A DNA stretch of 64,000 bases. It comes from Desulfarculia bacterium. Lineage in GTDB: Bacteria; Desulfobacterota; Desulfarculia; G963662305. The stretch's first letter is position 1. Each line of letters begins with the position of its first letter. Location: contig OY759352.1 in the NCBI GenBank assembly GCA_963662305.1, forward strand, positions 349,035 through 413,034, given 5' to 3'. Shown piece after piece: positions 4,905 through 38,982 of this stretch. A program made the translations under genes and the position numbers. The notes beneath the pieces are model-generated. The model did no database searches and was not told where the DNA came from. It saw only the letters and a list, made by a program, of their open reading frames with translations.

Positions 4905-4912
4905 CCCCTTTC

Positions 4913-10792: not shown

Positions 10793-10836
10793 TCTCCAGC
10801 ATTTCTACAAATTTATTCATTTTCCGGCCGGAGCCC

Positions 10837-18763: not shown

Positions 18764-19390
18764 CTAACCTTCCATTAGCCGCCTGGCCAGGGTCACGGCG
18801 CTGGGAGCATCCTCGGAGTACCCGCTGGCCCCGATCTGATCCGCAAAGGCCTTGGTCACCGGGGCTCCGCCGATCATGACCTTGATTCCCAGGCCCTGCT
18901 CCTTAAAAGCGGCCACGGTCTGCTCCATGGCCGGCATGGTGGTGGTCAGCAAAGCCGACAACCCGGCCAGCTCGGCCTTGTTTTCCTGGGCGGCTTTGAC
19001 AAACTTATCCGCATCAACGTCCACGCCCAGATCGATGACATTAAATCCGGCGCCTTCCAACATCATGGCCACCAGGTTTTTGCCGATATCGTGCAAGTCG
19101 CCTTTAACCGTACCCACAACTATCGTTCCGGCTGGTTTGGCGTCTGAATCGGACAACAGGGGGCGAATAACCGCCAGACCGGCCTTCATGGCCTGGGCAG
19201 CCATAAGCATCTCGGGGACAAAAAGAACGCCTTCGGAAAACTTTTTTCCAACCTCGTCCATGGCCCCGATCAAGCCGTCGTTCAATATGGACTGAATGTC
19301 GGTACCAGCATCCAACTCGGTCTGCACTAGGATCGGTACCTCCGCATCCTTGAACTCAATTACTGCTTGATAAATATCCTGTACAGCCAT
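18764..19390 (-). CDS. Cobalamin-binding corrinoid protein (MtmC/MttC/MtgC-like)
   Basis: 208 aa; B12-binding motif VKGDLHDIGKNLV (DxHxxG); N-terminal cap helix domain; GGAPV Rossmann B12 fold. Confidence 0.85.
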   Translation of the reverse strand: MAVQDIYQAVIEFKDAEVPILVQTELDAGTDIQSILNDGLIGAMDEVGKKFSEGVLFVPEMLMAAQAMKAGLAVIRPLLSDSDAKPAGTIVVGTVKGDLHDIGKNLVAMMLEGAGFNVIDLGVDVDADKFVKAAQENKAELAGLSALLTTTMPAMEQTVAAFKEQGLGIKVMIGGAPVTKAFADQIGASGYSEDAPSAVTLARRLMEG

Positions 19391-23403: not shown

Positions 23404-23532
23404 GATTTGAACCTCCTCAGGCTGTATTCCAAAAATTAGCGAGCCGACCCTATATCCGCCGATACGGCAACCGGCCTTGATCCGTCTATCCAAGCCGATC
23501 CAGGATATCGGCTTTCCGGTTTGGGGCTGCTG

Positions 23533-23979: not shown

Positions 23980-25011
23980 CTAAGACCTTCTTGAATCTTT
24001 TGGGTTCAAACCGACCATGAACCGCCAAAACGGGCTTTTGGGACTGGTCAGGTATTTTTGGTAGATGGTGGCCACGCCGCCGGGGTAGTAGATCATGACC
24101 ACGATCAGGACCAGACCGTAGATGACCAGATGGATTCCCGGCAGGTTGGAGAATCCGGAACGGATCAGCTCCATGGCGATCAGGAAGGGAATGGCGATCA
24201 AGGGACCGCCCCACAGGGTGCCCCGGCCGCCGATGTAGGCCACGGCCAGAATCTCCACGGTCTTGGAGGTATGCATGTAATCAGGGGTCAGGATGCCGAT
24301 GTAGTGGGCGTAGAATCCTCCCAGCCAGCCGGCCAGGGCGCAGGAGACGGTGAAGTTGAAGATCCGGTATCCCACCGGGTTTATTCCTGAAGTACGGGCC
24401 GCCTCCATGTTCTGGCCGATGGCCCGGAAGGCCAGCCCCATGTTGGACCTGGTGATCCAGCGGCAGATGACGAAGGTGACCACCATCATGATCAGGGCCA
24501 CATAGAAATAGGGAACGTTGGAGGGCGTGTCAAAGAGCTGGGGGGCCCTGAGCCCCAGCATGCCCCGGGTCATGGGAACCCACTTCTGGGCGATGCCCAT
24601 GAGCGACAGGCCGATGAACCAGGTCACCAGGGCGGCGAAAATGCCCCTGTGACGCAGGGTCAGCAATCCGGTCAGGAACCCCAGTATCGCCGCGCTTACG
24701 GCCCCCACGAACATGCCCGCCCAGGGGGTCAGCCCCAGCCGCACGGCCAGGATGGCCGAGGTGTACCCGCCCAGCCCGGCGATGGCGTTGAAGCCGAAAT
24801 TGACGATGTTGATGAATCCCACCGAGAGGTCAAAGGCGATGGCCGAGGCGGCGATGATGATGGCTATGGTTATCCAGCGGATCAGATACTCCTGGGGCAG
24901 AAACAGGGGCGCCAGGGCCAGAATGATCAGCCCGGCCAAGGCCAGCGGAGTAAGGCAGAGCTTGTCCAGAACCCAGCTGAAAGGATTCAGAGTCGATTTA
25001 TTGGTCTCCAT
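23980..25011 (-). CDS. livM: Branched-chain amino acid-type ABC transporter permease (LivM-like)
   Basis: 343 aa polytopic; typical LivM/BPD_transp_2 core. Confidence 0.8.
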   Translation of the reverse strand: METNKSTLNPFSWVLDKLCLTPLALAGLIILALAPLFLPQEYLIRWITIAIIIAASAIAFDLSVGFINIVNFGFNAIAGLGGYTSAILAVRLGLTPWAGMFVGAVSAAILGFLTGLLTLRHRGIFAALVTWFIGLSLMGIAQKWVPMTRGMLGLRAPQLFDTPSNVPYFYVALIMMVVTFVICRWITRSNMGLAFRAIGQNMEAARTSGINPVGYRIFNFTVSCALAGWLGGFYAHYIGILTPDYMHTSKTVEILAVAYIGGRGTLWGGPLIAIPFLIAMELIRSGFSNLPGIHLVIYGLVLIVVMIYYPGGVATIYQKYLTSPKSPFWRFMVGLNPKDSRRS

Positions 25012-25030
25012 TTTCTCTCCCCTGCCGCGC

Positions 25031-26053
25031 TTACTGGTCCAAGACGCCGCGGACCTCGGTGCCGAAGATTCCGCTGGGCTTGACGATCAGAACCAGGATT
25101 ATGAGGGCCGTGGGAACCACGTACTCCCAGCCGCTGCCGATATATTCAAGGGTCAGGACCCGGGCCAGGCCCACCAGGAAACCGCCCATGAGGGCTCCCA
25201 GGACATTGCCCAATCCCACCAGGATGACCACAAACCAGGCCATGTAGAGCGGCTCCATGCCCACCGTGGGATAGGTGGGGTAGAGAAACAGCAGGCTCCC
25301 TCCGGCCACCGCGGCCAGGGCGCAACCGATGGCCATGGTCAGCATGGTCACATTGTCCAGGGGGATGCCCACCATCAGGGCCCCGGTCTCGTCCTGGCTG
25401 ACCGCCCGGATGGCCCGCCCGGTTCTGGTCTTGCCCATGAACAGCCAGAACAGGATGATGAGAACCAGGGAGAGCAGCACCGCGAAGATCCTGTCCCGGG
25501 AGACAAAGGCTCCAAAAAAATCTACGGGCGCACCGGTGTAATAGCGGCTGATGCCCTTGAACTCTACTCCCAGGACCATCTGATGGAGGTTGATCAGAAC
25601 CACCGAAACCCCCACGGTCAGGAGAAAGGAGTTCATGACCCAGTTCTGCCTGGCTCTTTTTCGAAGCGGCCTGATGGCCAGCACCTCGGTCAGGGCTCCG
25701 GCCGCCGCTCCGGCCAGCAGGGCCGCAAAGATGGCGATGAGCGGGACGAGCAGGGCGAAAAAGGAACCAGGGGCGGCCGCCCCCTCCAGGGTCTTGAAGA
25801 CCGCGTAGGCGGCCAGCCCTCCGATCATGAAGTACTCGCCGTGGGCGAACTGAGGGATGTTCAACACCCCGAAGACCATGGCCAGGCCCACCGAGATCAG
25901 GGCCAGCATTCCCCCCAGAACAATGGTGTTTACCAGGATATAGGGTCCCCGGTCGATGGTGCAGACCACGGTCAGGACCAAGGCCACCAGAACCGTAATC
26001 CCGGCCGCGGTCCTGAACCAGTCAAAAAGTCTTTGAAACAGCGCTGTCAGCAT
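25031..26053 (-). CDS. livH: Branched-chain amino acid-type ABC transporter permease (LivH-like)
   Basis: 340 aa polytopic; LivH-like BPD_transp_2. Confidence 0.8.
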   Translation of the reverse strand: MLTALFQRLFDWFRTAAGITVLVALVLTVVCTIDRGPYILVNTIVLGGMLALISVGLAMVFGVLNIPQFAHGEYFMIGGLAAYAVFKTLEGAAAPGSFFALLVPLIAIFAALLAGAAAGALTEVLAIRPLRKRARQNWVMNSFLLTVGVSVVLINLHQMVLGVEFKGISRYYTGAPVDFFGAFVSRDRIFAVLLSLVLIILFWLFMGKTRTGRAIRAVSQDETGALMVGIPLDNVTMLTMAIGCALAAVAGGSLLFLYPTYPTVGMEPLYMAWFVVILVGLGNVLGALMGGFLVGLARVLTLEYIGSGWEYVVPTALIILVLIVKPSGIFGTEVRGVLDQ

Positions 26054-26085
26054 TTAGTCGCCCTCCGGAGCCGCGTCTTATAATA

Positions 26086-26150
26086 AGTTTCAAAAATACG
26101 TTCCGTATTTTTGACGGACCGCCCGGCCAAAAACGTGGTTTTGGCCCGGC
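26086..26150. repeat. Intergenic two-hairpin repeat element, copy B
   Basis: caAAAATACGTTCCGTATTTTTGACGGACCGCCCGGCCAAAAACGTGGTTTTGGCCCGGC; hairpin 1 ATACG/CGTAT is a compensated variant of ATGCG/CGCAT in copy A; between livH and livF. Confidence 0.75.
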
Positions 26151-26231
26151 TCACGGTCGCTTTGCGACCGGCGGCCCGTTACCGGCCCGCTTAGAGCGAT
26201 TGTCGCTTAAAGCATATTTCCGACAACCGCT

Positions 26232-26939
26232 CTAGACCCCCAAAAAGACCTTGCGCACATGGGGGTCCTCGGCCAGATTGCTGCTGGCCCCTTCCAGTTC
26301 GACCCGCCCGTTCTCCAGGACATAGCCCCGGGAGGTGAACTGGAGAGTTTTAATCACGTTCTGCTCCACCACCAGGATGGTCAAACCGTCCTTGTTGAGC
26401 CTGGACAGGGCGGCGAAGACGCCATCGGTCAGGTTGGGGGCCAGGCCGAAAGAGGGTTCGTCCACCAAAAGCAGCTTGGGGTCGGGCATCAACCCCCGGC
26501 CGATCCCCAGCATCTTCCTCTCCCCCCCGCTCATGGTCCCGGCCAGTTGGTTGCGCCTCTCCTCCAGCCGGGGGAAAAGCTCGTAGACTATGTCCAGGCG
26601 GTCCCTGATAACCTTTTTATCCTTGATGGTGTAGGCTCCCATGAGCAGGTTCTCGTGGACCGACATGTTGACGAACAGATTCATCTCCTCGGAGATGTAG
26701 CTGATGCCCTTGCGGCAGACCTTGTTGCCGGGCATTCCGGCCACATTCTCACCCCGGAATTTGACCTCTCCGCTCAGGGGCGATACCAGGCCGCTGATGG
26801 TTTTCAGGGTGGTGGACTTGCCGGCGCCGTTGGGGCCGATAAGGCAGACGTACTCTCCCTCGTCCACCTTCAGGCAGACATCCCTGAGGATCTGGAGGAA
26901 TCCATAACCCGCGTTCAGGTTGGTTACTTCGAGTAACAA
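26232..26939 (-). CDS. livF: ABC transporter ATP-binding protein (LivF-like)
   Basis: Walker A GPNGAGKST, signature SGGERKML, Walker B LLLVDEPS. Confidence 0.88.
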   Translation of the reverse strand: MLLEVTNLNAGYGFLQILRDVCLKVDEGEYVCLIGPNGAGKSTTLKTISGLVSPLSGEVKFRGENVAGMPGNKVCRKGISYISEEMNLFVNMSVHENLLMGAYTIKDKKVIRDRLDIVYELFPRLEERRNQLAGTMSGGERKMLGIGRGLMPDPKLLLVDEPSFGLAPNLTDGVFAALSRLNKDGLTILVVEQNVIKTLQFTSRGYVLENGRVELEGASSNLAEDPHVRKVFLGV

Positions 26940-27020
26940 TTGGGCCTCCGTTCAAACCGGGCCCCGCTTCTCCCGCTTTCCGCCTTCAGGGGGCGGACCG
27001 GAGAGTTCGGGTCTCCCTAA

Positions 27021-27740
27021 TCAGGCTTCAGAACCAAGGTATGCTTCGGCCACTTTCGGATCCCGGGCCACCTCTTCGGTGGGGCCGTCGGCAATCTTGG
27101 AACCGAAATTGATCACCACCAGACGGCTGCAGACGTTCATGATCAGCTGCATGATGTGCTCAACCATCAGGATGGTTATCTCCCGTTCTTGTATTTTATT
27201 TATTATCTTAATAATATCCGTCAGCTCCCCGGTGGACAGGCCGGCCGCCAGCTCATCCATGAACAGGACCTTGGGATGGCTGGCCAAGGCCCTGGCCAGA
27301 TCCAGCCTTTTGAGCTGAACCGTGTTCAGGCTTTCGCAAATGGTGTCCTCCGGGACCGGAAACTCCACAAACTCCAGCAACTCCCGGCTCAGGGCGTAGG
27401 GATTTTTGACCTTTTCCTTGTTGCCGAAGATGGCCGCGGTGAGAACATTCTCCAGGCTGGTCATCTTGGGAAAAGGCCGGGGAATCTGAAAGGTCCGTGA
27501 CAGGCCTCTCCGGCACATCCTTTCAGGCGCCAGCCCGGTGGAGTCCCGGCCCAAAAAGCTGACCCGGCCCGAGGTGGGCGAATTCAATCCGGCGATGGCG
27601 TTAAGCAAGGTGGTCTTTCCGGCCCCGTTGGGCCCGATCAGCCCCACGATCTCGCCCTGGGCCACGTGCATGTTTACTTTATTGACGGCGATCAGACCGC
27701 CGAATCTCTTAGTGACGTTTTCAGTCTCTATGACATTCAT
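27021..27740 (-). CDS. livG: ABC transporter ATP-binding protein (LivG-like)
   Basis: Walker A GPNGAGKTT, signature LSTGE, Walker B LFMDEL; likely starts at internal MNVIETENVTKRFGG. Confidence 0.85.
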   Translation of the reverse strand: MNVIETENVTKRFGGLIAVNKVNMHVAQGEIVGLIGPNGAGKTTLLNAIAGLNSPTSGRVSFLGRDSTGLAPERMCRRGLSRTFQIPRPFPKMTSLENVLTAAIFGNKEKVKNPYALSRELLEFVEFPVPEDTICESLNTVQLKRLDLARALASHPKVLFMDELAAGLSTGELTDIIKIINKIQEREITILMVEHIMQLIMNVCSRLVVINFGSKIADGPTEEVARDPKVAEAYLGSEA

Positions 27741-27886
27741 ATAACCGCCTTGGCTGATGATCGAAGACTGTTTCAATGAGGCGGGCGGAAAGCTCCCCCG
27801 GATGCCGACCGCCTGCCTTGGACGACCCTTCTGATGATCGCCGATTCCGGCCCCGGGATTAACCCGGAAGCCGGAAATGCGCTTGC

Positions 27887-29155
27887 TTATTTGGGAGCCA
27901 CGAATTTACCCGTGGCCATGGCATCGGGGTAGATGGAGATGATCTGGCCGCCCATGTACTGGGTCACCGGGAAGAAGTAGTGATCCGGGCCCAGAACCGG
28001 ATCGGGGTTGGTCTCGGGAGTGTACTTGTACTCCTTCATCATGATGATGCCGTCTTTTTGGGTAAAGGACATCTTGCCGGTGTAGACCTCCTCCACCAGG
28101 GTCTTGTGGATGGACTCGGAGTCCAGCTTGCCGTCCCGCTCAAAGGTTCTCTGCAAAACCTTGGTGAAGATGGTGAAGCCGTCGTAGGACAGACCCGAGG
28201 CCGGAGCGGAGGGTATGAAGCCGAACTTCTTCTCCTTGGCCGCGGCAAACTCCTTGGCCGCCTTGGTGGCGAACATGGTCTGAACGTCCAGGACCCCGTC
28301 CGAGGCGGCGCCCACCAGCTTGTACCAGTCGCCCACCCAGGACAGGCCGTTGGCAAAGAAGAGGGCCTGCTTGTTCAGGCCCACCTCGGCGTATTGCTTG
28401 ACCAGGCCGGTCATGGACGGGGCCGAGGTGGTGGTGCCGCCGATAAAGGAGACCCCGGATTTCTTCCACTTGGACAAAAGCGGGTAGAAATCGGTCTGCT
28501 TGAGGTCAAAATATTCCTCGCTGACGATCTCCCAGCCGTCGGCGGTCAGGGACTTTTTCAGGTTCTCGCCGGCGTTGCGGCCCCAGTCGGTCTCCTCGCC
28601 GAAGATGGCCGCCTTTTTGGCCTCGGGCTTCCACTGTCCGGCGTCCATGATGCTCTTCAGAAAAGAGGCCATGCCCTTGGCCTCCAGGCCGCCGGGTACG
28701 GGCCAGCCCTTGATTCCCCAGTAGGAATACTTTTTGGGGTCCTCGCGCCATTTGGTCACCACGGGCTGGGCCGCGCCCATGCCGTACATCCAGGGCACCT
28801 TGTACTGGGCGGCCAGGTCCATGCAGGCGATGGCCACGGATGAGTGCCAGTTGATGGCTCCGGCCACGATCCCCTTGCGCTCGCAAGCCTCGGCAAAGGC
28901 GGAGGTGGCCTTGGCCGGGTCGGACTGGGAGTCCACCCAGACTATCTCCAGGGTATAATCGCCGATCTTGCCGCCGATCTTTTCCATGACCATCTGAACC
29001 GAGGTCTTGAACTCGTTTCCAGCCTTGGCGGATGGCCCGGTAAAGGGACCCATGACCCCCACCTTCAGGACCTTTTCGGCCATGGCCTGGCCGGAGAAGA
29101 CAAAAAGTGAGATGGCGATGGCAAAGACCATCAGATAACGCGCTCTCCCGTTCAT
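27887..29155 (-). CDS. Periplasmic substrate-binding protein, LivK/Leu-Ile-Val-binding (type I PBP) family; ligand unknown
   Basis: Signal peptide MNGRARYLMVFAIAISLFVFSGQAMA then a type I periplasmic binding fold; ATG at 29155 preceded by GGAGG; first gene of the minus-strand operon. Confidence 0.8.
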   Translation of the reverse strand: MNGRARYLMVFAIAISLFVFSGQAMAEKVLKVGVMGPFTGPSAKAGNEFKTSVQMVMEKIGGKIGDYTLEIVWVDSQSDPAKATSAFAEACERKGIVAGAINWHSSVAIACMDLAAQYKVPWMYGMGAAQPVVTKWREDPKKYSYWGIKGWPVPGGLEAKGMASFLKSIMDAGQWKPEAKKAAIFGEETDWGRNAGENLKKSLTADGWEIVSEEYFDLKQTDFYPLLSKWKKSGVSFIGGTTTSAPSMTGLVKQYAEVGLNKQALFFANGLSWVGDWYKLVGAASDGVLDVQTMFATKAAKEFAAAKEKKFGFIPSAPASGLSYDGFTIFTKVLQRTFERDGKLDSESIHKTLVEEVYTGKMSFTQKDGIIMMKEYKYTPETNPDPVLGPDHYFFPVTQYMGGQIISIYPDAMATGKFVAPK

Positions 29156-29359
29156 AAAACCCTCCTTCTCTTGGTTATTCCCCAATAATACAATTAGTTT
29201 TTTGCATCACCCTCACCCAAAAACCAAGCCTCGCCTGTTCACCTCCTGTTCTGTACCGTCCAGGCCGGCGGCCTATCTGATTTTTTTAGAGTTCGACCCA
29301 GCAGGTGGAGGCCGGCCCGTGACCCGAATGGGCCGGCCTTGTAATTAAAAGTTAAAGTG

Positions 29360-30675
29360 TTAACCGTTAACCGAAAAACTTGAATCAGGGTTGATCTTCC
29401 GCTTGCGGGAGTAGAACCCCACATCGATGCTGTACCCGGTGTACTTCATCTTGAACTGGAGCGGATCCTTGTCGTGGTCCAGACCCTCTTTTTCCACCTG
29501 GTTGATCAATTCGGCCATCATGGCCCCCACCACCGGGGCGTTCTTGTACTGGTTGCCCGAGGTGCCGATGGCCAGGTAGAAACCGCCCAGATCGGTCTTG
29601 TCGTAGATGGGGATCCAATCGTCGGAGCAGTCGTACAGATCGGCTATCCCCAATTGCTTGTTGGGTATCTTCAGGGAGGGGATGCGCCTGGCCAGGCGGT
29701 AGACCTGGGCCTTGTACTGGGCGTCGGTTATGTTGCGGTTGAAGTTGTCCGGATCCGAGATCCACTCCTGTTTGTCGCAGTCCGGATCTTCGGAGCCCAC
29801 CAGGATCATGTTGCCCACCTCGGGCCGGAAATAGATGGAGTTGTCGCCGTCCGAGGTGTGGTACCCGTTGTTCAGAAAGTCGAACCCCTCGGGCGAGGGC
29901 ACATGATGGACTTCGTGGCGCAGGGCCTTGGTCTTGATGTTCATCCCCTCCAGAACGCCCTCGGCCATGGCATTGACCACAAAGGAGTGGGGCCCGGCCG
30001 CATTGACCACAATGGGCGCGTCGATCCGGGTTCCGTCCTTAAGGGTCACCCCGGCCACCCTGCCGTTTTCGGAGCGGATATCCACCACCTCGGCCTTGAA
30101 CATGAACTCGCCGCCCTTGTTTTCCGCGGCCCGCTGGAGATTGTGGGTGGAAAGCTGGGGTCGTTCACATACCCTCCGCCCGGGCAGAAAACGCAACCTT
30201 CCACCTCGCCCTTGGGTTCGGTGAAGTTGTCGTCCTCCTCGGGACGGGAGGGCGGCCAGAATTCACCGTGGGAGTAGATGGCGATATGTTTATCCAGATC
30301 GTCCAGGGTCCATTCTTCATATTCCACGCCTACTGCGTCGTAATGCTTGACCACCTTTTTCCAGTCGTGCCCCTTGGACTTGATCAGAATGGAGCCGGTG
30401 TTGCGGTACTCGGCCAAACCGCTTTCATCCTGGCATTCCAGGTAGGCGGCCCAGTCAGACCAGTATTTGAAGCCCTCGTAAGCCATGGCCACGCCGTCCT
30501 GGGTGGAGTAGTGGGCCCGGACAATGGCGCAGGAGTTGGAGGTGGAACCGTATCCGCTGGTGGGAAGTTTGTCGATGTTGAGCGTCTTGTAGCCTTTTTT
30601 AGCCAGTTCAAACCCGATGGAAGCCCCGATGATCCCAGCGCCGATGATTACGGCGTCGTACTTCTTGTTTGCCAT
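29360..30675 (-). pseudogene. FAD-dependent oxidoreductase (DadA/sarcosine-oxidase-beta-like) interrupted by a frameshift at a C4 run (~30160)
   Basis: N-terminal ORF 30046-30675 (MANKKYDAVIIGAGIIG...GGGYVNDP) and C-terminal ORF 29360-30196 (...QLSTHNLQRAAENKGGEFMFKAEVV...) are consecutive parts of one DAO-family protein in different frames; adding one C to gaCCCCag restores a continuous reading frame. Confidence 0.7.
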
Positions 30676-30772: not shown

Positions 30773-31411
30773 TCAGAACACCTTGGATAGAAAGCCCCTG
30801 GTGTGCTGGAAATTCTCCCTCATCAACAGCTCCACCCGGTCTCCTTCGCCGGCCCGCATGGCCTCCACGATCCGCAGATGCTCGGCCATGGAATTCCGGA
30901 TTCTCTCCTGGGACTCGAAGCTGCCGGCCAGAATCTTGTTCATCCTCAACGTGTCATAAAGATTCTTGATCATGTCGATGAGCCGGGTCATGCCGCAGGC
31001 CTGGACGATGTCGCTGTGGAACAGCCGGTCCGCCTCGGTGTAATCCAGCCTCCCCTTTTCATAATCTTCCATGTACCCGGCCAACCGGTCTATCTGCTCC
31101 GGGGTAACCCGCTCCGTGGCCAGGCGGGCGGCCAGGCTCTCCAAAGCCTCCCTGATAAGGAGAATCTCCAGGGCCTCCTCCTTGTTCCATTGCCTGACGA
31201 ACGCTCCCCGGCGGGGAATGATCTCGATCAAGCCTTCCTTGGACAACTGGTTCAGGGCCTCCCTGATGGGGGTCCGGCTGACCGCCAGATCCCGGACCAG
31301 ATCGGCCTCCTTCAACCTGGTTCCCGGCGCCAGGTCGCCGCTGGCGATACCGTTCCTCAAGATTTTGTACACTTCGCCTTTTAAGTCCCTTACCGTTTCT
31401 ATCTTCTTCAT
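30773..31411 (-). CDS. GntR-family transcriptional regulator (FadR/FCD subfamily), copy 1
   Basis: winged HTH ...DLAVSRTPIREALNQLSKEGLIE plus FCD C-terminal domain; ATG at 31411 with GGAGG RBS. The longer ORF to 31483 is probably a 5' extension. Confidence 0.8.
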   Translation of the reverse strand: MKKIETVRDLKGEVYKILRNGIASGDLAPGTRLKEADLVRDLAVSRTPIREALNQLSKEGLIEIIPRRGAFVRQWNKEEALEILLIREALESLAARLATERVTPEQIDRLAGYMEDYEKGRLDYTEADRLFHSDIVQACGMTRLIDMIKNLYDTLRMNKILAGSFESQERIRNSMAEHLRIVEAMRAGEGDRVELLMRENFQHTRGFLSKVF

Positions 31412-31544
31412 GAGCGCAGAAAGGGTACCTCCTTGTATCTGGACGGCATTGAGCCCCTTGGTCGATGCCTGGGTTAATTTCAAAATAGAACTTGGTTATG
31501 CAGAGGATCTACTTATTGTATATGTATACGCATACACTCGGGCC

Positions 31545-31748: not shown

Positions 31749-32651
31749 TCAACTGCCGGAACAGGCACCGCGGTAGACCCCCAATTCCTCCCTGGCAAAC
31801 CTTATGCTCTCCCGGACCGCCGCATATTCCAGGCGGCGGGCCTCGTCCTTGTCCCCTGTCCCGGGGTCGAACTCCACCTCCAGGTTGAGGCGCTCCATGG
31901 CCGGGTTGGCCCTGATAATCCGATAGGCCTCCCGCATGGGCACATCCCCGGCGCCGCAAGCCACGCCGGTGATGCGGCAACCGTAGGGTTCAAACTCGAT
32001 GCGGTGGTCTGAAAAATGGTTGGTGAAAGCCACCGGGGCCAGTTTGCGGATGGCGGTCAAGGGATCCTCGCCCACCATCAGGGAGTTGTTGGTATCCACA
32101 CAGGCCCCCACAAAGGCATGGTTGACCCGGTTGATTATCCACAGCACCTCGTCGGCAAAGGCCTCGGTATGGTTCTCCAAGCAGAGCCGGACCCCGGCCT
32201 TTTGGGCCAGGGGCGCGGCTTTAGCGACCTTGCGGGCCACCTCCTCGAACTGGCCCAGCAGGTCCGGGTGAAAGGCCGAGTTGCAGACTGGATGGGGCCG
32301 GTGGATGTCCATGCTGATCTTGCCGATGTCCGAACCGATGGCGTGGGCGATCTCGATGCCCTGTTCCACCGTGTGGATCAGACGCTCGTCGTAAGAGGAA
32401 GCGTCCAGGGAGAAATTGTATTCCAGAAACAACCCCCGGTCGGCGGCGGCCTTTTTCACGTCGTTGAGGTGGGCCGAGTCCAGCCTGCCCAGATCCACGG
32501 CGGTGAGGTGGAGTCCGTCCAGATCCAGGTCGAGGGCCTCGTCCATGAGCCCGTAGATATCCCAGACCTGTTCCCAGTCCAGCTCGAACCCGCCCCAGTT
32601 CTGACCCATGCCGTGAAGGTGGAAACTGTAGGTATGCAACCCCAGGAGCAT
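31749..32651 (-). CDS. Sugar phosphate isomerase/epimerase (xylose-isomerase-like TIM barrel) family protein
   Basis: 300 aa; ...CLENH... metal-binding motif and overall AP-endonuclease-2/xylose-isomerase-like TIM-barrel signature. Confidence 0.65.
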   Translation of the reverse strand: MLLGLHTYSFHLHGMGQNWGGFELDWEQVWDIYGLMDEALDLDLDGLHLTAVDLGRLDSAHLNDVKKAAADRGLFLEYNFSLDASSYDERLIHTVEQGIEIAHAIGSDIGKISMDIHRPHPVCNSAFHPDLLGQFEEVARKVAKAAPLAQKAGVRLCLENHTEAFADEVLWIINRVNHAFVGACVDTNNSLMVGEDPLTAIRKLAPVAFTNHFSDHRIEFEPYGCRITGVACGAGDVPMREAYRIIRANPAMERLNLEVEFDPGTGDKDEARRLEYAAVRESIRFAREELGVYRGACSGS

Positions 32652-32710: not shown

Positions 32711-33424
32711 TCAGAGTTCCTCCAGCGTCTCTGCGATATCCGTGCTGACCACGTTCAGATGTTCGCTCATGGCCCCGGCCGCTTCCTCGGAGCTGCCCGC
32801 CCCCACCGCGGCAGCCACCTTTCTGGCCGTGTTCAAACATTCCTGCTTCTCCCCCGAGAAGCCCAAAAAGTCGTCCCGATCCCGGACTATTTTAGTCCAC
32901 AAGAGATTCATGATCTCCATGAGCACCGCATTGTTGGAGGCCCTGGCCAGGGCCTGATGGAACTCCAGATCAGCCTTGTAGAAACCGGCCTTCTGGTCCA
33001 CCAGAGCCGACATCTTCATCACCGCCCGGTCAAGGGCGGCTGTCTGGGTGGAATCGGCTCGGGTCGCGGCCAGGGAGGCGGCCTTGCACTCCAGCACGTT
33101 TCTGATGTCCACCAGATCCAGAGAATCCACGGCAATAAAGGCCTGGTTGAGCCGGTCCGTGGAAAGGTCCTCGTCCGGGATGTTCTCTTTTAAAAAAGCT
33201 CCCTTGCCCTGATAGACATCCAGGTAGCCCATCAGGGTCAGAGCCCGGGCGGCCTCCCGGACCGAAGACCTGCAGACCCCGAACATCTCGGCCAGTTCTC
33301 TTTCCGGCGGCAATTTCTGGCCCGGCCCCAAGACTCCCTCTCGGACCTGTTCCAGTATCTGCTCGACAATCATCTCGGATGAGGTGGTTTTGTTAATCTT
33401 TTGGAATTTCATCTTATTTCGCAT
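32711..33424 (-). CDS. GntR-family transcriptional regulator (FadR/FCD subfamily), copy 2 (start uncertain: 33373, 33412 or 33424)
   Basis: HTH ...PPERELAEMFGVCRSSVREAARALTLMGYL plus FCD domain; the ORF track extends to 33484 with an unlikely N-terminal extension. Confidence 0.75.
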   Translation of the reverse strand: MRNKMKFQKINKTTSSEMIVEQILEQVREGVLGPGQKLPPERELAEMFGVCRSSVREAARALTLMGYLDVYQGKGAFLKENIPDEDLSTDRLNQAFIAVDSLDLVDIRNVLECKAASLAATRADSTQTAALDRAVMKMSALVDQKAGFYKADLEFHQALARASNNAVLMEIMNLLWTKIVRDRDDFLGFSGEKQECLNTARKVAAAVGAGSSEEAAGAMSEHLNVVSTDIAETLEEL

Positions 33425-33484
33425 TTTGGTTCCAGTATTAGATTCATTTTCCAGGTTATCCACATCAACTACCATCATTTTCAA

Positions 33485-33498: not shown

Positions 33499-33646
33499 TA
33501 TTCCCTGCTATCCGATTAAGTATGCCATCAACTTAGCTGCTTGTCCTACCAATTTTTATAGAGGCTTGAAAAAGGCTATATTGGGGCAGGGTCGCCTTTC
33601 GAACAAAATAGAGAATCCGGTTTTTTAAAAGCTTGAGAGGGCTGTC

Positions 33647-34846
33647 ATGAGAAAGATATATCTACCTGAGCCAAAAGACAGAACAGCCGACGCGGTGGTC
33701 ATCGGAGGGGGCATTGTGGGCGTGGCCACCGCCTTCTGGCTGTCCCGTGCCGGGCTGGACACCGTCTGTCTGGAGGCTCGGGAGGGGCTCTCCACCCTGA
33801 CCACGGCCGCCTCGGCCGAGTGTTTCCGGGCCCAGTTCACCGAGTCGGCCCTGGCCCCCATCGCCAAGGAATCAATCGAGATATTCGAAAATTTCGAGGA
33901 GTTCACCGGGGTGGCCGGGATAGACCTGGGGCTCCACCAGCAGGGTTATTTTTTCGTTACCGACCGGGAGGAGATGCTGCCCGAGTTGGAGGCCTCGGTG
34001 GCCCGCCAGCACGAACTGGGGGTGACCGACTCGGAGGTTCTCCTGGGCGCGGAGCTCAAAAAGAAGTTCCCCTTTTTGGGTGATTCCGCCAAGGGCGCCA
34101 CCTTCCGCCAAAAGGACGGCTGGCTCTCCTGCCACGAACTGACCCAGGGGTTTGCCAAGGGCTCCACGGCCAGGTTTTTCGTAAAGACCAAGGCCGTGGG
34201 GATAGTCCTGGAAGGGGGCAGGGTCGCGGCGGTGGAGACGGACCGGGGCCGCATCTCCACCCGGGTGGTGGTAAACGCGGCTGGTCCGTTCGCCGGCCCC
34301 ATCGGTCGCATGGCCGGACTGGAGTTGCCCTTGGAGCCGGTGCGGCGGCAAAAGGTCTTTATCGCCACTCCGGCGGCCCCCGATTACGCCCCCTTTACCG
34401 TGGACCTGATCAACGGCTCCTACTGGAGGCCCGAGACCGGGGGAGCCCTGCTGGGCTGGGTCGACCCGGACGAACCGGTCAGCGAGCCCATGGAAAACCC
34501 CGCCGGAGACTGGGATTTCCCGGCCATCTGCCTGGACAAGTGCGCCCGGTTGAGCCCCTTTTGGCTGGATGTGGCCGAGGGCCTGAAAAAGAGCGACGTC
34601 ACGGTCTCGGCCGGACAGTACGTCTACACCCCGGACAGCCAGCCCATTATCGGGCCGGTCAAGGAGGTGGAGGGGCTCCATCTCAACTGCGGCTACTGGA
34701 TGGGGGTCATGGTCTCCCCGGTGGTGGGCCGGATCTGCGCCGAGATCATCACCGGGAAGATGGACAATAGGGACAATCCCTTGCGGCTCAGCCGGTTTGA
34801 GGAGGGCATTGAACCGGAGAAAGGCGCTTTTTTAAGCGGTCACTGA
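33647..34846 (+). CDS. FAD-dependent oxidoreductase (DadA / sarcosine oxidase beta-like)
   Basis: ADAVVIGGGIVGVATAFWLSRAG (GxGxxG) and DAO-fold throughout; 399 aa. Confidence 0.8.
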   Translation: MRKIYLPEPKDRTADAVVIGGGIVGVATAFWLSRAGLDTVCLEAREGLSTLTTAASAECFRAQFTESALAPIAKESIEIFENFEEFTGVAGIDLGLHQQGYFFVTDREEMLPELEASVARQHELGVTDSEVLLGAELKKKFPFLGDSAKGATFRQKDGWLSCHELTQGFAKGSTARFFVKTKAVGIVLEGGRVAAVETDRGRISTRVVVNAAGPFAGPIGRMAGLELPLEPVRRQKVFIATPAAPDYAPFTVDLINGSYWRPETGGALLGWVDPDEPVSEPMENPAGDWDFPAICLDKCARLSPFWLDVAEGLKKSDVTVSAGQYVYTPDSQPIIGPVKEVEGLHLNCGYWMGVMVSPVVGRICAEIITGKMDNRDNPLRLSRFEEGIEPEKGAFLSGH

Positions 34847-35036
34847 AATCAATGGGAGGAGACAGGGTCGGGTTTCCCTTGGGGAAGGAGCTTTCCGGGG
34901 CAAGAACACGGTTTCGCCCCGGCTGAAAATTTACGGCGCCGGCGGGTCGTTTCCGGGCCGTTGCGAGCGGTTCTCAAACCCACGGATACCTTGAGAACCG
35001 TTTCATGATCAAACATCGGGGGCTTAGGGGGGTTGA

Positions 35037-36458
35037 ATGTTTGAGCGGATGCATACCTTCGGCAAAAAGGAGATGGCCTGTGTTCACGACACCGCCATGG
35101 CCATTCTGGACAAGGTGGGAATCGCTTTTCACGACCCGGAGGCTGTGGAGATTTTTAAAAAACACGGGGCCAGGGTGGATGGGGTTAAGGTTTTCCCCCA
35201 GGAGAGCCTAGTCCAAAAGGCCCTGTCCACAGCTCCTCCGGCCTTCACCCTGACCGCCCGGGACCCGGCCAAATCGGCCCGCCTGGGGGGGCCTGATTTC
35301 GCCCTGGTCCCGGGTTACGGGGCGCCCTTCATCATCACCCCGGAAGGGGAGAAGCGCAACGGAACCCTGGAGGACTACGACAACTTCTGCAAGCTGGTCC
35401 AGACCTCACCCTATTTGGACATGAACGGCTTCCTGATGGTGGAACCGTCCGACATCCCCAAGGAGAGCGCCTACCTGGATATGATGCTCTCCAACATCCT
35501 GCTCTGCGACAAACCTTTCATGGGCGCGCCCCTCTCCCGCCGGGCCGCGGCCCAGGCCGTGGAGATGGCGGCCCTAACCTTCGGCGGCCTGGAATTCATT
35601 AAGGAGCACCCGGTCATGCTGCCGGTGACCAGCATCATCGCCCCCCTGCGCTACTCCGAGGAGATGGCCGGCTCCATCATCGAATTCGCCCGGGCCGGGC
35701 AACCGGTCCTGGCCGCCAGTCTGGTCATGGGCGGCTCCTCCGGGCCGGTCACCCTGTCCGGGCTGCTGGCTTTGCAGAACGCCGAGATTCTGGCCGGGAT
35801 GGCCCTCTCCCAGCTGATCCGGCCCGGAGCGCCCTTCATCTACGGCTCCTCCTCCTGCCCCATGGACATGCAAACCGGGGCTCTGGCCATGGGCGCCCCG
35901 GAGACCATGGTCATCATCGCCGCCACGGCCCAGATGGGACAATTCTACAACCTGCCCACCCGGGGGGGCGGTACTCAGACCGACGCCCACCTGACCGATT
36001 ACCAGGCCGGGGTGGAGGCGGCCCTGAACCTGCTCACCACCATCCGCAGCGGGATCAACTTCGTGCTTCACGCGGCCGGAATCCTGGACTCCTACGCCTC
36101 CATGAGCTTCGAAAAATTTCTTTTGGACGACGAACTGTGCGGTATGGTCAAACGAATGATCAGGCCCGTGGATTTCTCTGAGGAGGCCCTTGACCTGGAG
36201 ACCATAAAAAAGGTGGGCGTGGGCGGCCAGTTCCTGACCCAGCCCAAGACCTTCCGGCTCTGCCGGACCGAGTTTTTCACCCCCCGGCTGATGATCCGTC
36301 AGAGCCGCGGCAACTGGGACCAGGAGGGCCGCCCGGACGCGGCCCAAAGGGCTGCGTCCGAGCTGGAGAGACGGCTGGAGAGCTACGTCAGGCCGGACAT
36401 TGAGCCGGCCTTGGAAAAGGACCTCAGACTTTACGTGGAAGACCGGAAGAAAGGGTGA
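35037..36458 (+). CDS. MttB-superfamily (non-pyrrolysine) methyltransferase, copy 2
   Basis: 473 aa; ~55% identical to copy 1 (19469-20881) over its full length; no amber codon. Confidence 0.8.
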   Translation: MFERMHTFGKKEMACVHDTAMAILDKVGIAFHDPEAVEIFKKHGARVDGVKVFPQESLVQKALSTAPPAFTLTARDPAKSARLGGPDFALVPGYGAPFIITPEGEKRNGTLEDYDNFCKLVQTSPYLDMNGFLMVEPSDIPKESAYLDMMLSNILLCDKPFMGAPLSRRAAAQAVEMAALTFGGLEFIKEHPVMLPVTSIIAPLRYSEEMAGSIIEFARAGQPVLAASLVMGGSSGPVTLSGLLALQNAEILAGMALSQLIRPGAPFIYGSSSCPMDMQTGALAMGAPETMVIIAATAQMGQFYNLPTRGGGTQTDAHLTDYQAGVEAALNLLTTIRSGINFVLHAAGILDSYASMSFEKFLLDDELCGMVKRMIRPVDFSEEALDLETIKKVGVGGQFLTQPKTFRLCRTEFFTPRLMIRQSRGNWDQEGRPDAAQRAASELERRLESYVRPDIEPALEKDLRLYVEDRKKG

Positions 36459-36853
36459 AGCCGGTGGTTCTGAAAGCCATACATGACAGATGCTCCGGGT
36501 GTCGGGCCTGCCTTCTGGCCTGCAGCCTGGATAATTTCAGGGAGATGACCGTCTCCAAGGCGGCCCTGGGCATCCAGGGCCGCTTCCCGGCGCCGGGTGA
36601 TTACCGGGTCCTGCTGTGCGACCAGTGCGGGGCCTGCGCCGAGGCCTGCCCCACCGAGGCCATCCGGGAGACCGAGGGACGCTACCTCATCGACCACGAC
36701 CTGTGCATGGGCTGCCTCTCCTGCGTGGAGGCCTGCCCCAAGGGGGTGATGTTCGCCCATCCCAGCCTGGACGAGCCCATCAAGTGCACCCTCTGCGGGG
36801 CCTGCGTGGCCATCTGTCCCCGGGGGGCCTTGGTCTTGGAAAGGAGGGCTTAG
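36455..36853 (+). CDS. Poly-[4Fe-4S] ferredoxin
   Basis: 132 aa with four CxxCxxCxxxCP-type motifs (CSGCRACLLACS, CDQCGACAEACP, CMGCLSCVEACP, CTLCGACVAICP); start overlaps the mttB-2 stop. Confidence 0.85.
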   Translation: MKPVVLKAIHDRCSGCRACLLACSLDNFREMTVSKAALGIQGRFPAPGDYRVLLCDQCGACAEACPTEAIRETEGRYLIDHDLCMGCLSCVEACPKGVMFAHPSLDEPIKCTLCGACVAICPRGALVLERRA

Positions 36854-38752
36854 ATGCTGTTCGGATATGCCGGAAAGATCCTGCGGATAGACCTTACCAG
36901 CGGTAATGTCCGAAAAGACCCTCTGCCCCCGGAGCTGGCCGAGAGATTCCTGGGCGGCCGGGGTTTTGTGGCCCGCCTGTTGTGGGAGGAGTTACCCTCC
37001 GGAGTGGACCCCTTTGCCCCGGACAACATTCTGATCATCGCCGCCGGACCGCTCAGCGGCCATCTTCTGCCGGCCAGCGGCAAAACCCATTTCGGGACCA
37101 AGTCCCCGGCCACGGGCGGCTACGCCGACTCCAACATGGGCGGGCACTTCTCCCCGGCCCTTAAATACGCAGGTTACGACGTCCTGATCCTCACCGGCCG
37201 GGCCGCTCAGCCCAGTCTGGTGAAGATCGACGACAATGAGGTGGAGATCCGCCCGGCCGGCGATTGCTGGGGCGCGGGCGCCCTGGATACCGAGGAGCGG
37301 CTGAAAAAGGATTTGGGCGAAGATTTCCAGATAATCACCATCGGCCCGGCCGGAGAACGGCTGGTCCGCTTTGCCTGCATCTCCCACGACTTCGGCCGCC
37401 AGGCCGGCCGGACCGGAGCAGGCGCGGTTATGGGTTCCAAGAACCTCAAGGCCGTGGCCGTACGGGGCAGCGGCAGCCTGCCGGTCTACGACTTGGCCGG
37501 GGCCTACCAAAAAGGCCGGGAGGCCTACCAAAAGGTCAAGGCCAAGCCCGGATTCGCGGGCTGGACCCCGGAAGGGACGGCCGGAATCACGGACTGGGTC
37601 AACGAGGTGGGGGTCTTTCCCACCCGCAATTTCCAGACCTCTTTTTTCGAGGACTACAAGAAGATCAACGGCCGGGCCGTGGTGGAGAAGTTAAAAATCA
37701 CGGACAAGGGCTGCTTCTGCTGCCCCACCCCCTGCGGCAAATACGGCCGGGCCGAGACGGCCCTGGGCTCCGCCTTTGTGGAGGGCCCGGAGTACGAGTC
37801 CATCGCCCTTCTGGGCGGCTCGTGTTTCCTCAATTCCATCCACGAGGTGGGTTTCGCCAACCACGTCTGCGACCAGCTGGGCCTGGATACCATCTCGTCC
37901 GGGGCCGTGGCCGGTTGGGCCATTGAGTGTTTTGAGAAAGGGCTGCTGTCAAAAGAGCAGGTGGGCCGGGAGATCCGCTTCGGGGACCTGGATTCCCTGG
38001 TCTATCTTTTCAACCGGATCGCCTTCCGCGAGGGGATCGGCGACCTGCTGGCCGAGGGGGTCAAACGGGCATCCCGCAAAATCGGGCGGGGCTCGGAAGA
38101 TTTCGCCATCCATGTCAAGGGATTGGAATGGTCCGGCTACGAGTGCCGCAACGCGCCGGGGATGATGCTGGCCTACATGACCGCGGACGTGGGGGCCCAC
38201 CACAACCGGGCCTGGGTCCTGGGCCACGACGTGGCCGGGTCTGCGGCCAGCGTCCACGACCTGATCTCGGGCGGCGGCCGGGCTGAAAAAATGCCCAAGA
38301 GCCCGGTCTCCGGCAAATCGGAAAAGGTCATGGAGTTGCAGCACATCCGGCCTTTGTTCGACTGCCTGGGCATCTGCCGGCTGCAGTACATGGAGTTGGG
38401 CTTTGAGGTGGAGAACTACGAGGAGCTGTTCTTTCTGATCACAGGGCAGAGGCTCTCCTGGGAGCAGATGCTCAAGATCTCGGAACGGGTCTGGCATTTG
38501 ACCCGGTCCTTTTCTGTCCGGGAGATCCCGGACTTTGGGCGGAAGTACGATTACCCTCCGGCCCGGTTTCACCAGGAGCCGGTGCCCACCGGGCCCAACA
38601 AGGGTCATTTGCTCACCCAGGAGGAACTGGAGCTTCTTCTGGACGAATACTACCAGGCCCGGGGCTGGGACAAAAACGGCATCCCCACATCCCAGACCCT
38701 GGAAAAACAGGGCCTGGAGGACGTGGCCCAGACCCTGGCCAAGAAAAGTTGA
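36854..38752 (+). CDS. Aldehyde:ferredoxin oxidoreductase (tungsten-containing AOR family), copy 2
   Basis: 632 aa; GKILRIDLTSG..., AOR domains; ATG immediately after the ferredoxin stop with GGAGGG RBS. Confidence 0.88.
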   Translation: MLFGYAGKILRIDLTSGNVRKDPLPPELAERFLGGRGFVARLLWEELPSGVDPFAPDNILIIAAGPLSGHLLPASGKTHFGTKSPATGGYADSNMGGHFSPALKYAGYDVLILTGRAAQPSLVKIDDNEVEIRPAGDCWGAGALDTEERLKKDLGEDFQIITIGPAGERLVRFACISHDFGRQAGRTGAGAVMGSKNLKAVAVRGSGSLPVYDLAGAYQKGREAYQKVKAKPGFAGWTPEGTAGITDWVNEVGVFPTRNFQTSFFEDYKKINGRAVVEKLKITDKGCFCCPTPCGKYGRAETALGSAFVEGPEYESIALLGGSCFLNSIHEVGFANHVCDQLGLDTISSGAVAGWAIECFEKGLLSKEQVGREIRFGDLDSLVYLFNRIAFREGIGDLLAEGVKRASRKIGRGSEDFAIHVKGLEWSGYECRNAPGMMLAYMTADVGAHHNRAWVLGHDVAGSAASVHDLISGGGRAEKMPKSPVSGKSEKVMELQHIRPLFDCLGICRLQYMELGFEVENYEELFFLITGQRLSWEQMLKISERVWHLTRSFSVREIPDFGRKYDYPPARFHQEPVPTGPNKGHLLTQEELELLLDEYYQARGWDKNGIPTSQTLEKQGLEDVAQTLAKKS

Positions 38753-38982
38753 ACCTGACCCTGACCCTTTCCGGGGGTCTGCGGGCCGTGCTCAGCGACC
38801 TGCCGGAGCGCATGGAGCTGGACCTGGACAGGCCGGCCATGGTCTGGGAGATCCTGCTCCGGGCCGGGATCAACCCCGGCCTGGCCATGATGGTCTTTCT
38901 GGACGGCAGAAGGGCGGATCTGGACCAGGTGGTTGAATACGATTGTGAGCTGACGGTGGTTGGTCCTGCGGCCGGGGGGTGA
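38749..38982 (+). CDS. MoaD/ThiS-family sulfur-carrier protein (C-terminal Gly-Gly)
   Basis: 77 aa ending ...TVVGPAAGG; TTG start overlaps the AOR-2 TGA (TTGA). Confidence 0.75.
   Translation: MNLTLTLSGGLRAVLSDLPERMELDLDRPAMVWEILLRAGINPGLAMMVFLDGRRADLDQVVEYDCELTVVGPAAGG

Follow-up and report, generated by a model that had tools for sequence, protein, structure and literature searches.

A conserved association of MttB-family methyltransferases with a flavoprotein and a ferredoxin-linked aldehyde oxidoreductase

A stretch of 64,000 nucleotides from a Desulfarculia bacterium (contig OY759352.1, positions 349,035 to 413,034; termed the window hereafter) was analyzed with a focus on five genes on its forward strand (33647-38982). 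These genes encode, in this order, a flavoprotein (DAO399), an MttB-family methyltransferase (MttB-2), a polyferredoxin, an aldehyde:ferredoxin oxidoreductase (AOR-2) and a small ThiS/MoaD-like protein. They form one operon within a methylated-amine catabolic island that spans approximately 15.7-39.0 kb of the window. The association is found again in more than a hundred related genomes and metagenome contigs, including the majority of 80 species-level genomes; across these, DAO399 and the ferredoxin-AOR pair constitute the constant core and the methyltransferase the variable front end. All components belong to known families and it is their combination, not a new kind of enzyme, that is new: a catalytic subunit of the FOR clade with an AorA-type polyferredoxin is tied to MttB methyltransferases and a flavoprotein of the DAO family. 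The recurrence of the combination, which is widely distributed among Desulfobacterales, points to an undescribed anaerobic route for the breakdown of methylated amines. An initial annotation, made from the sequence alone, had known of no described coupling of MttB and AOR. In agreement with this, a full-text literature search found no paper that links the two, and the examined papers that name both treat them as unrelated. The genes of the operon are as follows:

33647..34846, + strand: DAO399, FAD-dependent amine dehydrogenase/oxidase family, without a folate-binding domain, first gene of the operon (Pfam DAO, E 4e-53)
35037..36458, + strand: MttB-2, non-pyrrolysine member of the MttB family, presumed quaternary amine:corrinoid methyltransferase, 473 aa (Pfam MTTB, E 1e-137)
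36455..36853, + strand: AorA-type polyferredoxin, small electron-transfer subunit with four predicted [4Fe-4S] clusters, 132 aa (four CxxCxxCxxxC motifs, several Fer4 families)
36854..38752, + strand: AOR-2, catalytic subunit of the AOR/WOR family, FOR clade, 632 aa (AFOR_N, E 3e-78; AFOR_C, E 3e-120)
38749..38982, + strand: ThiS/MoaD-family small protein, 77 aa, ending in ...GPAAGG, probable cofactor-maturation factor like AorD/AorE

Operon layout and recurrence of the association

The initial annotation had described the last four of these open reading frames (ORFs), and their coordinates as well as their assignment to the MttB, ferredoxin, AOR and small-protein families were confirmed by Pfam matches, motifs and profile comparison. 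The junctions were read from the sequence and are as tight as had been claimed. The mttB-2 and ferredoxin genes share a GTGA overlap (36455-36458), the ATG of AOR-2 directly follows the TAG stop codon of the ferredoxin gene (36851-36856), and the small gene starts in a TTGA overlap with the end of AOR-2 (38749-38752). The TTG start of the small gene lines up with the ATG of its homologues, and the genes are just as closely spaced in the homologous loci L001-L005, with gaps of 0-14 nt or 4-nt overlaps. The flavoprotein gene at 33647-34846 had been treated as upstream context outside the operon, and this assignment was revised: the spacer between DAO399 and mttB-2 (34847-35036) measures 190 nt in the window versus 34 bp in the closest relatives (L001, L002), and DAO399 is linked to AOR across genomes. 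The only sigma-70-like match near the operon is one weak site (33555-33582) in the divergent spacer between the GntR gene and DAO399. The sigma-70 scan yielded no internal promoter but is too weak to establish a single transcript; an equally weak pattern search of two spacers for sigma-54 sites gave no match, and an Rfam scan of 28-42 kb found no relevant RNA family. A riboswitch or attenuator in the 190-nt spacer was considered and dropped, as its folding is no better than that of shuffled sequences (z = +0.85). As a separate observation, the spacer holds a 9-bp perfect inverted repeat (GGTTCTCAA...TTGAGAACC).

A survey of MttB/AOR adjacency in other genomes had been set beforehand as one test of the predicted functional coupling, with a lack of conservation as the refuting outcome; this outcome was clearly not observed. 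Counts were taken from tblastn searches with the window proteins; ORF clusters were left unused, since the crude ORF caller had picked up antisense ORFs in this GC-rich DNA. A scan with AOR-2, using one genome per species, yielded 80 loci (65-76% identity), nearly all of them from metagenome-assembled genomes of Desulfobacterales, together with the isolate Desulfosarcina alkanivorans PL12. Sequence of 5 kb or more was available on both sides in 36 of these loci, of which 32 (89%) have an MttB-family gene and 33 a DAO399 orthologue within 10 kb of AOR. This supports the coupling and places the linkage of DAO399 to AOR at about the same tightness as that of MttB. A reverse scan of metagenomes with DAO399 gave 17 well-flanked loci, with AOR in 14, MttB in 15 and none that lacked both. 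Homologues of a TIM-barrel protein and of GntR regulators encoded next to the operon were found within 10 kb of AOR in 38/80 and 33/80 loci, respectively. Median identities to the window proteins over the 80 loci are 67.5% for AOR, 58% for the ferredoxin, 59% for DAO399 (orthologues in AOR loci are 55-72% identical) and 40.5% for the nearest MttB, with a range of 26-67% for the latter. The core is often accompanied by the TIM barrel, GntR, a Liv-type ATP-binding cassette (ABC) transporter and nearby soxBDAG genes (the latter in L003 and in L033-type loci), and in some loci (such as L027 and L033) it occurs without an MttB or corrinoid gene within 10 kb.

Homologues of MttB-2 itself at 82, 77, 66 and 59% identity are all encoded in the order DAO399-MttB-ferredoxin-AOR, even though the flanks of the 66% and 59% loci are quite unlike those of the window. 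A small ORF follows AOR in these loci with the exception of the 59% locus (L006), in which the contig ends after AOR. Homologues with 55-58% identity group with MttB-1, the paralogue in the window. Canonical corrinoid and pterin-methyltransferase partners accompany the homologues P0050, P0088 and P0118, with dimethylglycine dehydrogenase (DMGDH) in addition for P0050 and P0088; P0065 is found with DAO399, and P0070 with neither canonical partners nor DAO399. In the MttB-1-type loci L007 and L008, as in the MttB-1 cluster of the window, a DMGDH with a folate domain lies beside MttB and AOR is not adjacent.

The missing corrinoid partner had been another point of the initial annotation. This is true of the window, where the only pair of a corrinoid protein and a pterin methyltransferase lies beside MttB-1, 16 kb away from mttB-2, as had been stated, and where tblastn detected no second copy of either gene in the 64 kb. 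Orthologous loci of the same MttB clade (L009-L016) likewise lack such a pair within 10 kb. As a general feature the absence does not hold, since genes for a corrinoid protein and a pterin methyltransferase, and even for a RACo activase, often neighbor the AOR module elsewhere. A corrinoid protein is encoded in the D. alkanivorans PL12 locus (NZ_AP021874.1, about 6.47-6.49 Mb), which reads BCCT transporter - GntR - ferredoxin - AOR - DAO399 - MttB (clade A, MtgB-like) - corrinoid protein, with soxB upstream. The proposal of an in-trans supply of the corrinoid pair to MttB-2 is plausible. There is a precedent for it in Eubacterium limosum, where MtqC and MtqA serve three MttB enzymes (PMC8604678).

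Properties of the encoded proteins

Residues 3-472 of MttB-2 cover profile positions 29-497 of 500 of Pfam MTTB (PF06253). The protein is 42% identical to the glycine betaine methyltransferase MtgB of D. hafniense and 57% identical to MttB-1, which itself shares 46% identity with MtgB. The ORF contains no in-frame UAG codon and encodes Gln at the pyrrolysine position of M. barkeri MttB (given as K in the PDB sequence), whereas MtgB and MttB-1 have Leu at the equivalent position. Only the pyrrolysine-type model of NCBIfam matches MttB-2, with 348 bits and thus below its cut-off of 525, and no substrate-specific NCBIfam model reached its cut-off for MttB-2, DAO399, the TIM-barrel protein or the MR_MLE protein. 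Reading the substrate from the motif around the pyrrolysine position (GGGTQTDAH versus GGGL... in MtgB and MttB-1) was tried and rejected: AOR-linked orthologues with 65% identity have Leu, so that the motif is not diagnostic. The MtgB paper (PNAS 2025) gives no binding-site residues. For comparison, MtcB and MtyB of E. limosum share 53% identity and differ in their substrate preference (PMC8604678).

A neighbor-joining tree placed MttB-2 in a monophyletic subgroup of clade B, in which all members are encoded directly upstream of ferredoxin-AOR and which is sister to the MttB-1 type; MttB-1 groups with corrinoid- or DMGDH-linked homologues (L007, L008, L173). The MttB proteins that neighbor AOR can be divided into three or more large clades (32-45% identity between clades) plus eight minor ones, and their genes are located either directly upstream of the ferredoxin gene or just after DAO399. 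Clade A is closest to MtgB (45-53% identity), and clade C shares 28-32% with it. Such a spread over many clades would also be expected if MttB and AOR were not biochemically coupled at all and AOR frequently came to lie next to one of numerous paralogues among clustered catabolic genes; MttB families can indeed be very large, with 42 members in E. limosum (PMC8604678). This explanation is hard to reconcile with MttB genes positioned directly upstream of the ferredoxin gene, with overlapping or nearly abutting codons, in three separate clades, or with the monophyly of the AOR-adjacent clade-B proteins. It would also predict far fewer neighbors: the 89% of well-flanked loci with MttB within 10 kb compares with a rough, assumed estimate of well below 10% (even with approximately 20 copies per 6-Mb genome), and no MttB gene is found in the window within 8 kb of a second AOR gene (AOR-1). 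Chance juxtaposition is therefore regarded as extremely improbable.

AOR-2 is most similar among solved structures to P. furiosus FOR (1B25), with 493 bits and 42% identity over 606 aligned residues from end to end. The scores for the other solved clades are 425 (9MQX_D), 424 (1AOR), 353, 344 (AorB), 251, 245 and 223 bits, and the placement in the FOR clade is one by these bit scores against solved structures. The FOR residues E308, Y416 and H437 are kept as E315, Y429 and H450, and the cluster cysteines of FOR have their counterparts in CxxCxxxC (GCFCCPTPCG) and a distal Cys (GICRL). Of the initial label "tungsten-type AOR", the sequence bears out membership in the AOR/WOR family only, as the metal is not readable from it.

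The four CxxCxxCxxxC motifs of the polyferredoxin are present in 48 of 50 orthologues, and a homologue adjoins the AOR orthologue in related genome loci. Solved complexes of the AOR family contain small subunits homologous to the polyferredoxin, namely Wor1S (9MQX_E), AorA (8C0Z_C, E 1e-10), the WOR5 small subunit (6X6U_B) and BamC (4Z3W_E). A complex of the ferredoxin with AOR is supported by the existence of a natural fusion of a polyferredoxin with a FOR-type AOR (P0165, 775 aa, L090 10001-12328). The order of this locus is DAO-TIM-MttB-[Fd-AOR], and it contains three MttB genes, MR_MLE and a Liv-type ABC transporter.

The 77-aa protein alone gave no Pfam match and its best hits were SAMP2 (E 0.04) and TtuB (E 0.8). 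A profile of 13 homologues matched the sulfur carrier TtuB (E 3e-7), and nine of the 13 matched Pfam ThiS (best E 1e-6), so that the "MoaD-type" designation holds at the family level. An ORF that ends in GG and overlaps the AOR stop codon was found in 21 of 86 related loci, and the GG is invariant across the 13 aligned members. No MoeB/ThiF or MoaE gene was noticed in the operon, although no dedicated search was made. A role of the small protein as methyl acceptor in place of a corrinoid protein was considered and rejected, as the gene also occurs in loci with an adjacent corrinoid protein (L024, L044). The ferredoxin, AOR and MoaD-like genes had been presented as an unusual set of partners. 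They correspond to the known layout of bacterial aor operons, exemplified by aorA-aorB-(aorC)-aorD/E of A. aromaticum, in which MoaD-like genes stand at the end and AorD/E are proposed cofactor-maturation factors (PMC6365974). The trio is thus an ordinary bacterial AOR cassette and what is unusual is its attachment.

In DAO399 (399 aa), residues 15-366 match positions 1-352 of 353 of Pfam DAO (PF01266) and no other domain was found; in particular, the protein contains no GCV_T folate domain, which is present in the neighboring protein encoded at 20980-23493, and no conserved cysteine motif that could serve as an iron-sulfur docking site. Among solved structures, 1Y56_B of P. horikoshii, dimethylglycine dehydrogenase and glycine oxidase come closest to DAO399, and all three are distant. 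The first of these carries the PDB entry name "sarcosine oxidase" and is presumably an L-proline dehydrogenase subunit. In a side observation, a DAO399 orthologue (64%) at L171 11711-15740 is flanked by an MttB-1-type gene on one side and by a divergent MttB-like ORF (27%, no Pfam match on record) on the other, followed by a Pro_racemase-family gene and without AOR within 10 kb. This arrangement hints that some DAO399/MttB pairs may act on proline-type substrates.

By position, DAO399 could alternatively be the equivalent of AorC, i.e. the flavin adenine dinucleotide (FAD) subunit of a three-subunit AOR that serves general aldehyde detoxification in amine islands. The order ferredoxin-AOR-DAO399 in most loci mirrors aorA-aorB-aorC (PMC6365974), and the two proteins are of similar size (44 kDa for DAO399, 46 kDa for AorC). 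A search of solved structures with DAO399, however, returned no chain of the A. aromaticum AOR (8C0Z), and no NAD(P)-binding module was detected in DAO399 beyond the FAD Rossmann fold. The position of the gene in the window and its relatives is upstream of mttB and not after AOR, and orthologues occur beside MttB without AOR within 8-10 kb in four loci (L149, L157, L165, L171). An AorC-like role is consequently considered very unlikely.

A proposed pathway and its alternatives

The initial annotation had suggested that the MttB-catalyzed demethylation yields or consumes an aldehyde. MttB chemistry itself does neither, and the aldehyde would probably come from the conserved flavoprotein DAO399. 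In the order of steps inferred here, MttB-2 would transfer one methyl group of a quaternary, glycine-betaine-like amine to the Co(I) corrinoid protein encoded at 18764-19390, and the pterin methyltransferase encoded at 17948-18754 would pass it on to tetrahydrofolate, with this corrinoid pair being supplied in trans. DAO399 would oxidize the remaining tertiary or secondary amine, and hydrolysis of the resulting iminium would give an aldehyde, whose release in free form is expected because DAO399 lacks a folate-binding domain. This aldehyde would most likely be formaldehyde derived from an N-methyl group. AOR-2, as a tungsto- or molybdopterin enzyme of the FOR clade, would convert it to the acid (formate), and the electrons would exit via its own [4Fe-4S] cluster and then the four clusters of the polyferredoxin. 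The 77-aa protein would serve the maturation of the pterin cofactor, as is proposed for AorD/AorE. This three-step pathway with formaldehyde as the aldehyde is put forward tentatively, with a confidence that falls somewhat short of even.

Formaldehyde is favored for several reasons. It is the one product that many different methylated amines have in common, which matches the combination of a variable MttB with a constant AOR; this pattern looks like a funnel from varied first steps to one last step. AOR-2 is FOR-like and has kept the catalytic residues, and L007, L008 and the MttB-1 cluster of the window pair a folate-domain DMGDH with MttB and have no adjacent AOR. The D. alkanivorans locus would read as a full route from glycine betaine to glycine. 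The nearest relatives of DAO399 are dehydrogenases of N-methyl amino acids and of proline.

A number of observations weigh against this pathway. DAO399 is only distantly related to characterized enzymes (110 bits for the top PDB match), and the identity floor of 65% for AOR is a product of locus selection. Many MttB paralogues are to be expected in these genomes, as in E. limosum (42; PMC8604678). The resemblance to FOR is no proof of formaldehyde because the physiological substrate of FOR is itself uncertain; of the substrates of the P. furiosus enzyme, glutaric dialdehyde gives the lowest Km, and the crystal contained bound glutarate (PMC12096430). Both the window and L006 encode folate-coupled DMGDH-like enzymes, so that the need for an additional sink for formaldehyde is not obvious. 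The recurrent TIM-barrel protein plays no explained part, and proline-linked genes (MR_MLE, PutA, Pro_racemase) occur in some loci, for which an amino-acid semialdehyde would fit equally well.

The last point leads to the strongest of the rival explanations, in which the same three steps take place and the aldehyde is the carbon skeleton: DAO399 would oxidize a skeletal C-N bond of the demethylated amine or amino acid and AOR-2 the resulting aldehyde or semialdehyde. Proline, for example, would be converted via pyrroline-5-carboxylate (P5C)/glutamate-5-semialdehyde to glutamate, dimethylaminobutyrate or dimethylaminovalerate to succinic or glutaric semialdehyde, and glycine to glyoxylate. The top solved relative of DAO399 (1Y56_B) is in line with such a reaction, as are PutA in L020, Pro_racemase in L171 and MR_MLE in about 15 loci. 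The Liv-type transporter also counts in its favor, since Liv-type binding proteins typically bind amino acids. The low Km of FOR for glutaric dialdehyde and the bound glutarate (PMC12096430) argue in the same direction. In a variant, AOR-2 would act before MttB by oxidizing choline-derived betaine aldehyde. Zn-ADH genes next to the module (L006, L078, L090) and BCCT transporters (L051, L173) would both be compatible with choline. The window contains no choline dehydrogenase. It is harder to explain with substrate-specific skeletons why AOR and DAO399 are orthologous while the MttB clade varies. Moreover, PutA would already provide a semialdehyde dehydrogenase in L020, and no genes for handling oxalate were seen near the module, which speaks against glyoxylate. 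Overall, a skeletal aldehyde is judged possible but unlikely.

Ferredoxin and AOR may instead provide low-potential electrons for the reactivation of the corrinoid from Co(II) to Co(I), and not oxidize a stoichiometric intermediate. MttB systems require an ATP-dependent reductive activase and a strong reductant (RamQ in E. limosum, PMC8604678), and aldehyde oxidation yields electrons of very low potential (PMC6365974). Between AOR-DAO and MttB-corrinoid protein, L173 encodes a RACo activase together with a DUF1638/hydantoinase-like protein. A source of aldehyde would still be required, however, and the need for reactivation is merely occasional, which is hard to fit with translational coupling to the methyltransferase. 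Some copies of the AOR module, such as those in L027 and L033, moreover have no MttB or corrinoid gene within 10 kb, and little credence is given to this explanation.

A more far-reaching form of the formaldehyde pathway was considered as well. DAO399, the polyferredoxin and the FOR-type subunit might form one complex for the folate-independent four-electron oxidation of N-methyl groups to formate. Formaldehyde would be channeled from the flavin to the metallopterin site and both electron pairs would run into a single chain of iron-sulfur clusters, where electrons of high and low potential might be confurcated. Such a complex is rated as distinctly unlikely. If it exists, it would constitute the first defined physiological role for FOR-type tungsten enzymes and a second, corrinoid-plus-tungsten route for the complete mineralization of betaine by sulfate reducers.

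[quoted passage not shown] How much of their carbon arrives at methylotrophic methanogens depends on which anaerobes degrade them and on the extent of this degradation. Characterized MttB systems take off one methyl group, and for the E. limosum systems a further breakdown of the product is not described in the literature examined. A conserved module of DAO and ferredoxin-linked AOR would explain how Desulfobacterales could degrade such compounds beyond this point. FOR-type tungsten enzymes would gain a physiological setting as well; they were discovered decades ago and their natural substrate is still uncertain. The presence of the module in the cultured D. alkanivorans PL12, beside a BCCT transporter and a corrinoid protein, makes the question testable.

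Genomic surroundings and comparison with known systems

The island upstream of the operon contains the following genes:

32711..33484, - strand: GntR-FCD regulator, divergent from the operon (Pfam GntR, FCD)
31749..32651, - strand: xylose-isomerase-like TIM-barrel protein, recurrent companion of the module with unexplained role (Pfam AP_endonuc_2)
30773..31483, - strand: second GntR-FCD regulator (Pfam GntR, FCD)
29360..30675, - strand: DAO438, monomeric-sarcosine-oxidase-like flavoprotein with one frameshift (two overlapping ORFs, each covering half of Pfam DAO)
23980..29185, - strand: Liv-type ABC transporter with binding protein, two ATPases and two permeases (Peripla_BP_6, ABC_tran x2, BPD_transp_2 x2)
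20980..23493, - strand: dimethylglycine/sarcosine-dehydrogenase-like flavoprotein with folate-binding domain (Pfam DAO, FAO_M, GCV_T, GCV_T_C)
19469..20881, - strand: MttB-1, paralogue with canonical partners (Pfam MTTB)
18764..19390, - strand: corrinoid protein, candidate in-trans partner of MttB-2 (Pfam B12-binding_2, B12-binding)
17948..18754, - strand: pterin-binding methyltransferase, methylcorrinoid:tetrahydrofolate type (Pfam Pterin_bind)
15679..17700, - strand: hydantoinase/MutL-like ASKHA protein (Pfam Hydant_A_N, Hydantoinase_A, MutL)

The two GntR-FCD regulators, two DAO flavoproteins and AP_endonuc_2 TIM barrel noted in the initial annotation were all recovered upstream of mttB-2, with the difference that one DAO gene is frameshifted. 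An intact orthologue of DAO438 in L001 (438 aa, 85-87% identical) aligns to it in two frames with a switch near 30150-30250; DAO438 is either a pseudogene or the result of an assembly indel. For the TIM-barrel protein, no informative relative was found among solved structures or in NCBIfam. The Liv-type ABC transporter recurs beside the module in many loci. Homologues of the ASKHA protein occur elsewhere as DUF1638 fusions after DAO399 (L082 13115-15943; L173 1893-4820), in L173 next to a RACo-type corrinoid activase, and the protein may be an uncharacterized accessory factor of corrinoid methyltransferase systems.

Several further features of the window were recorded. The region 8765-13952 contains the gene for AOR-1, which is 32% identical to AOR-2 and has no polyferredoxin, MttB or DAO neighbors. 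Its gene is divergent from genes for an FrhB-like iron-sulfur flavoprotein and a protein similar to thiamine-pyrophosphate-dependent 2-oxoacid:ferredoxin oxidoreductases with a C-terminal Fer4 domain. A continuous ORF of 402 aa within 3696-6676 (+ strand) combines an RsmI-like methylase with a phosphotransferase system (PTS) HPr domain and is directly followed by a gene for PTS enzyme I; it may represent a real fusion or an HPr gene with an internal start. Directly after the operon, a large and unrelated polysaccharide/glycoconjugate cluster (39125-64000) encodes a sulfotransferase, several GT2/GT4 glycosyltransferases, an asparagine synthase, a Wzt-type ABC ATPase, a B12-binding radical SAM enzyme with DUF4070 and a SPASM radical SAM enzyme.

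Of the known systems, AorABC with AorD/E of A. aromaticum and Moorella thermoacetica resembles the second half of the operon in its four-cluster polyferredoxin, catalytic subunit and MoaD-like gene, which are encoded in the same order. The differences are that AOR-2 belongs to the FOR clade and not to AOR sensu stricto, that no AorC homologue follows AOR-2 and the conserved neighbor is a DAO-family flavoprotein, and that the genomic context is the catabolism of methylated amines and not the metabolism of aromatic aldehydes. P. furiosus FOR, the closest solved relative of the catalytic subunit, is described as a homotetramer without an additional subunit and accepts a narrow range of short aldehydes (PMC12096430). 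AOR-2 does not share this single-subunit layout at the gene level: it differs from the enzyme of the hyperthermophilic archaeon in being bacterial, in its co-translated and in one case fused polyferredoxin, and in its defined catabolic context. The folate-coupled demethylases DMGDH and SoxBDAG, the latter a heterotetrameric sarcosine oxidase, share the DAO fold with DAO399, which is most similar to this group, and are encoded in the same loci. DAO399 differs from them in having neither a GCV_T domain nor a SoxA-like partner of its own, and in the proposed pathway the sink for formaldehyde would be a metallopterin enzyme and not tetrahydrofolate.

An aerobic pathway for proline-betaine and hydroxyproline-betaine with the enolase-superfamily epimerase HpbD was reportedly described by Zhao and colleagues (Nature, 2013). 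It is said to employ a Rieske oxygenase for the first demethylation and an NAD-dependent dehydrogenase for the aldehyde step. MR_MLE, DAO-family, PutA and Pro_racemase-family genes in some of the related loci recall this pathway. The counterparts of its oxygenase and dehydrogenase would here be the MttB/corrinoid system and the ferredoxin-linked AOR, and no MR_MLE gene adjoins the module in the window.

The quaternary amine:tetrahydrofolate systems, i.e. MtgB of D. hafniense and MtpB, MtcB and MtyB of E. limosum with MtqC, MtqA and RamQ, are the nearest comparison for MttB-2, which is a full-length non-pyrrolysine member of the same family. As with MtqC/MtqA, one corrinoid/pterin pair in the island could serve both MttB paralogues (PMC8604678). 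No AOR or DAO partner of these systems is mentioned in the literature examined. Unlike in the MtgB and Mtq systems, mttB-2 is translationally coupled to the polyferredoxin and AOR and is preceded by an amine-oxidizing flavoprotein, which implies that the demethylated product would be degraded further.

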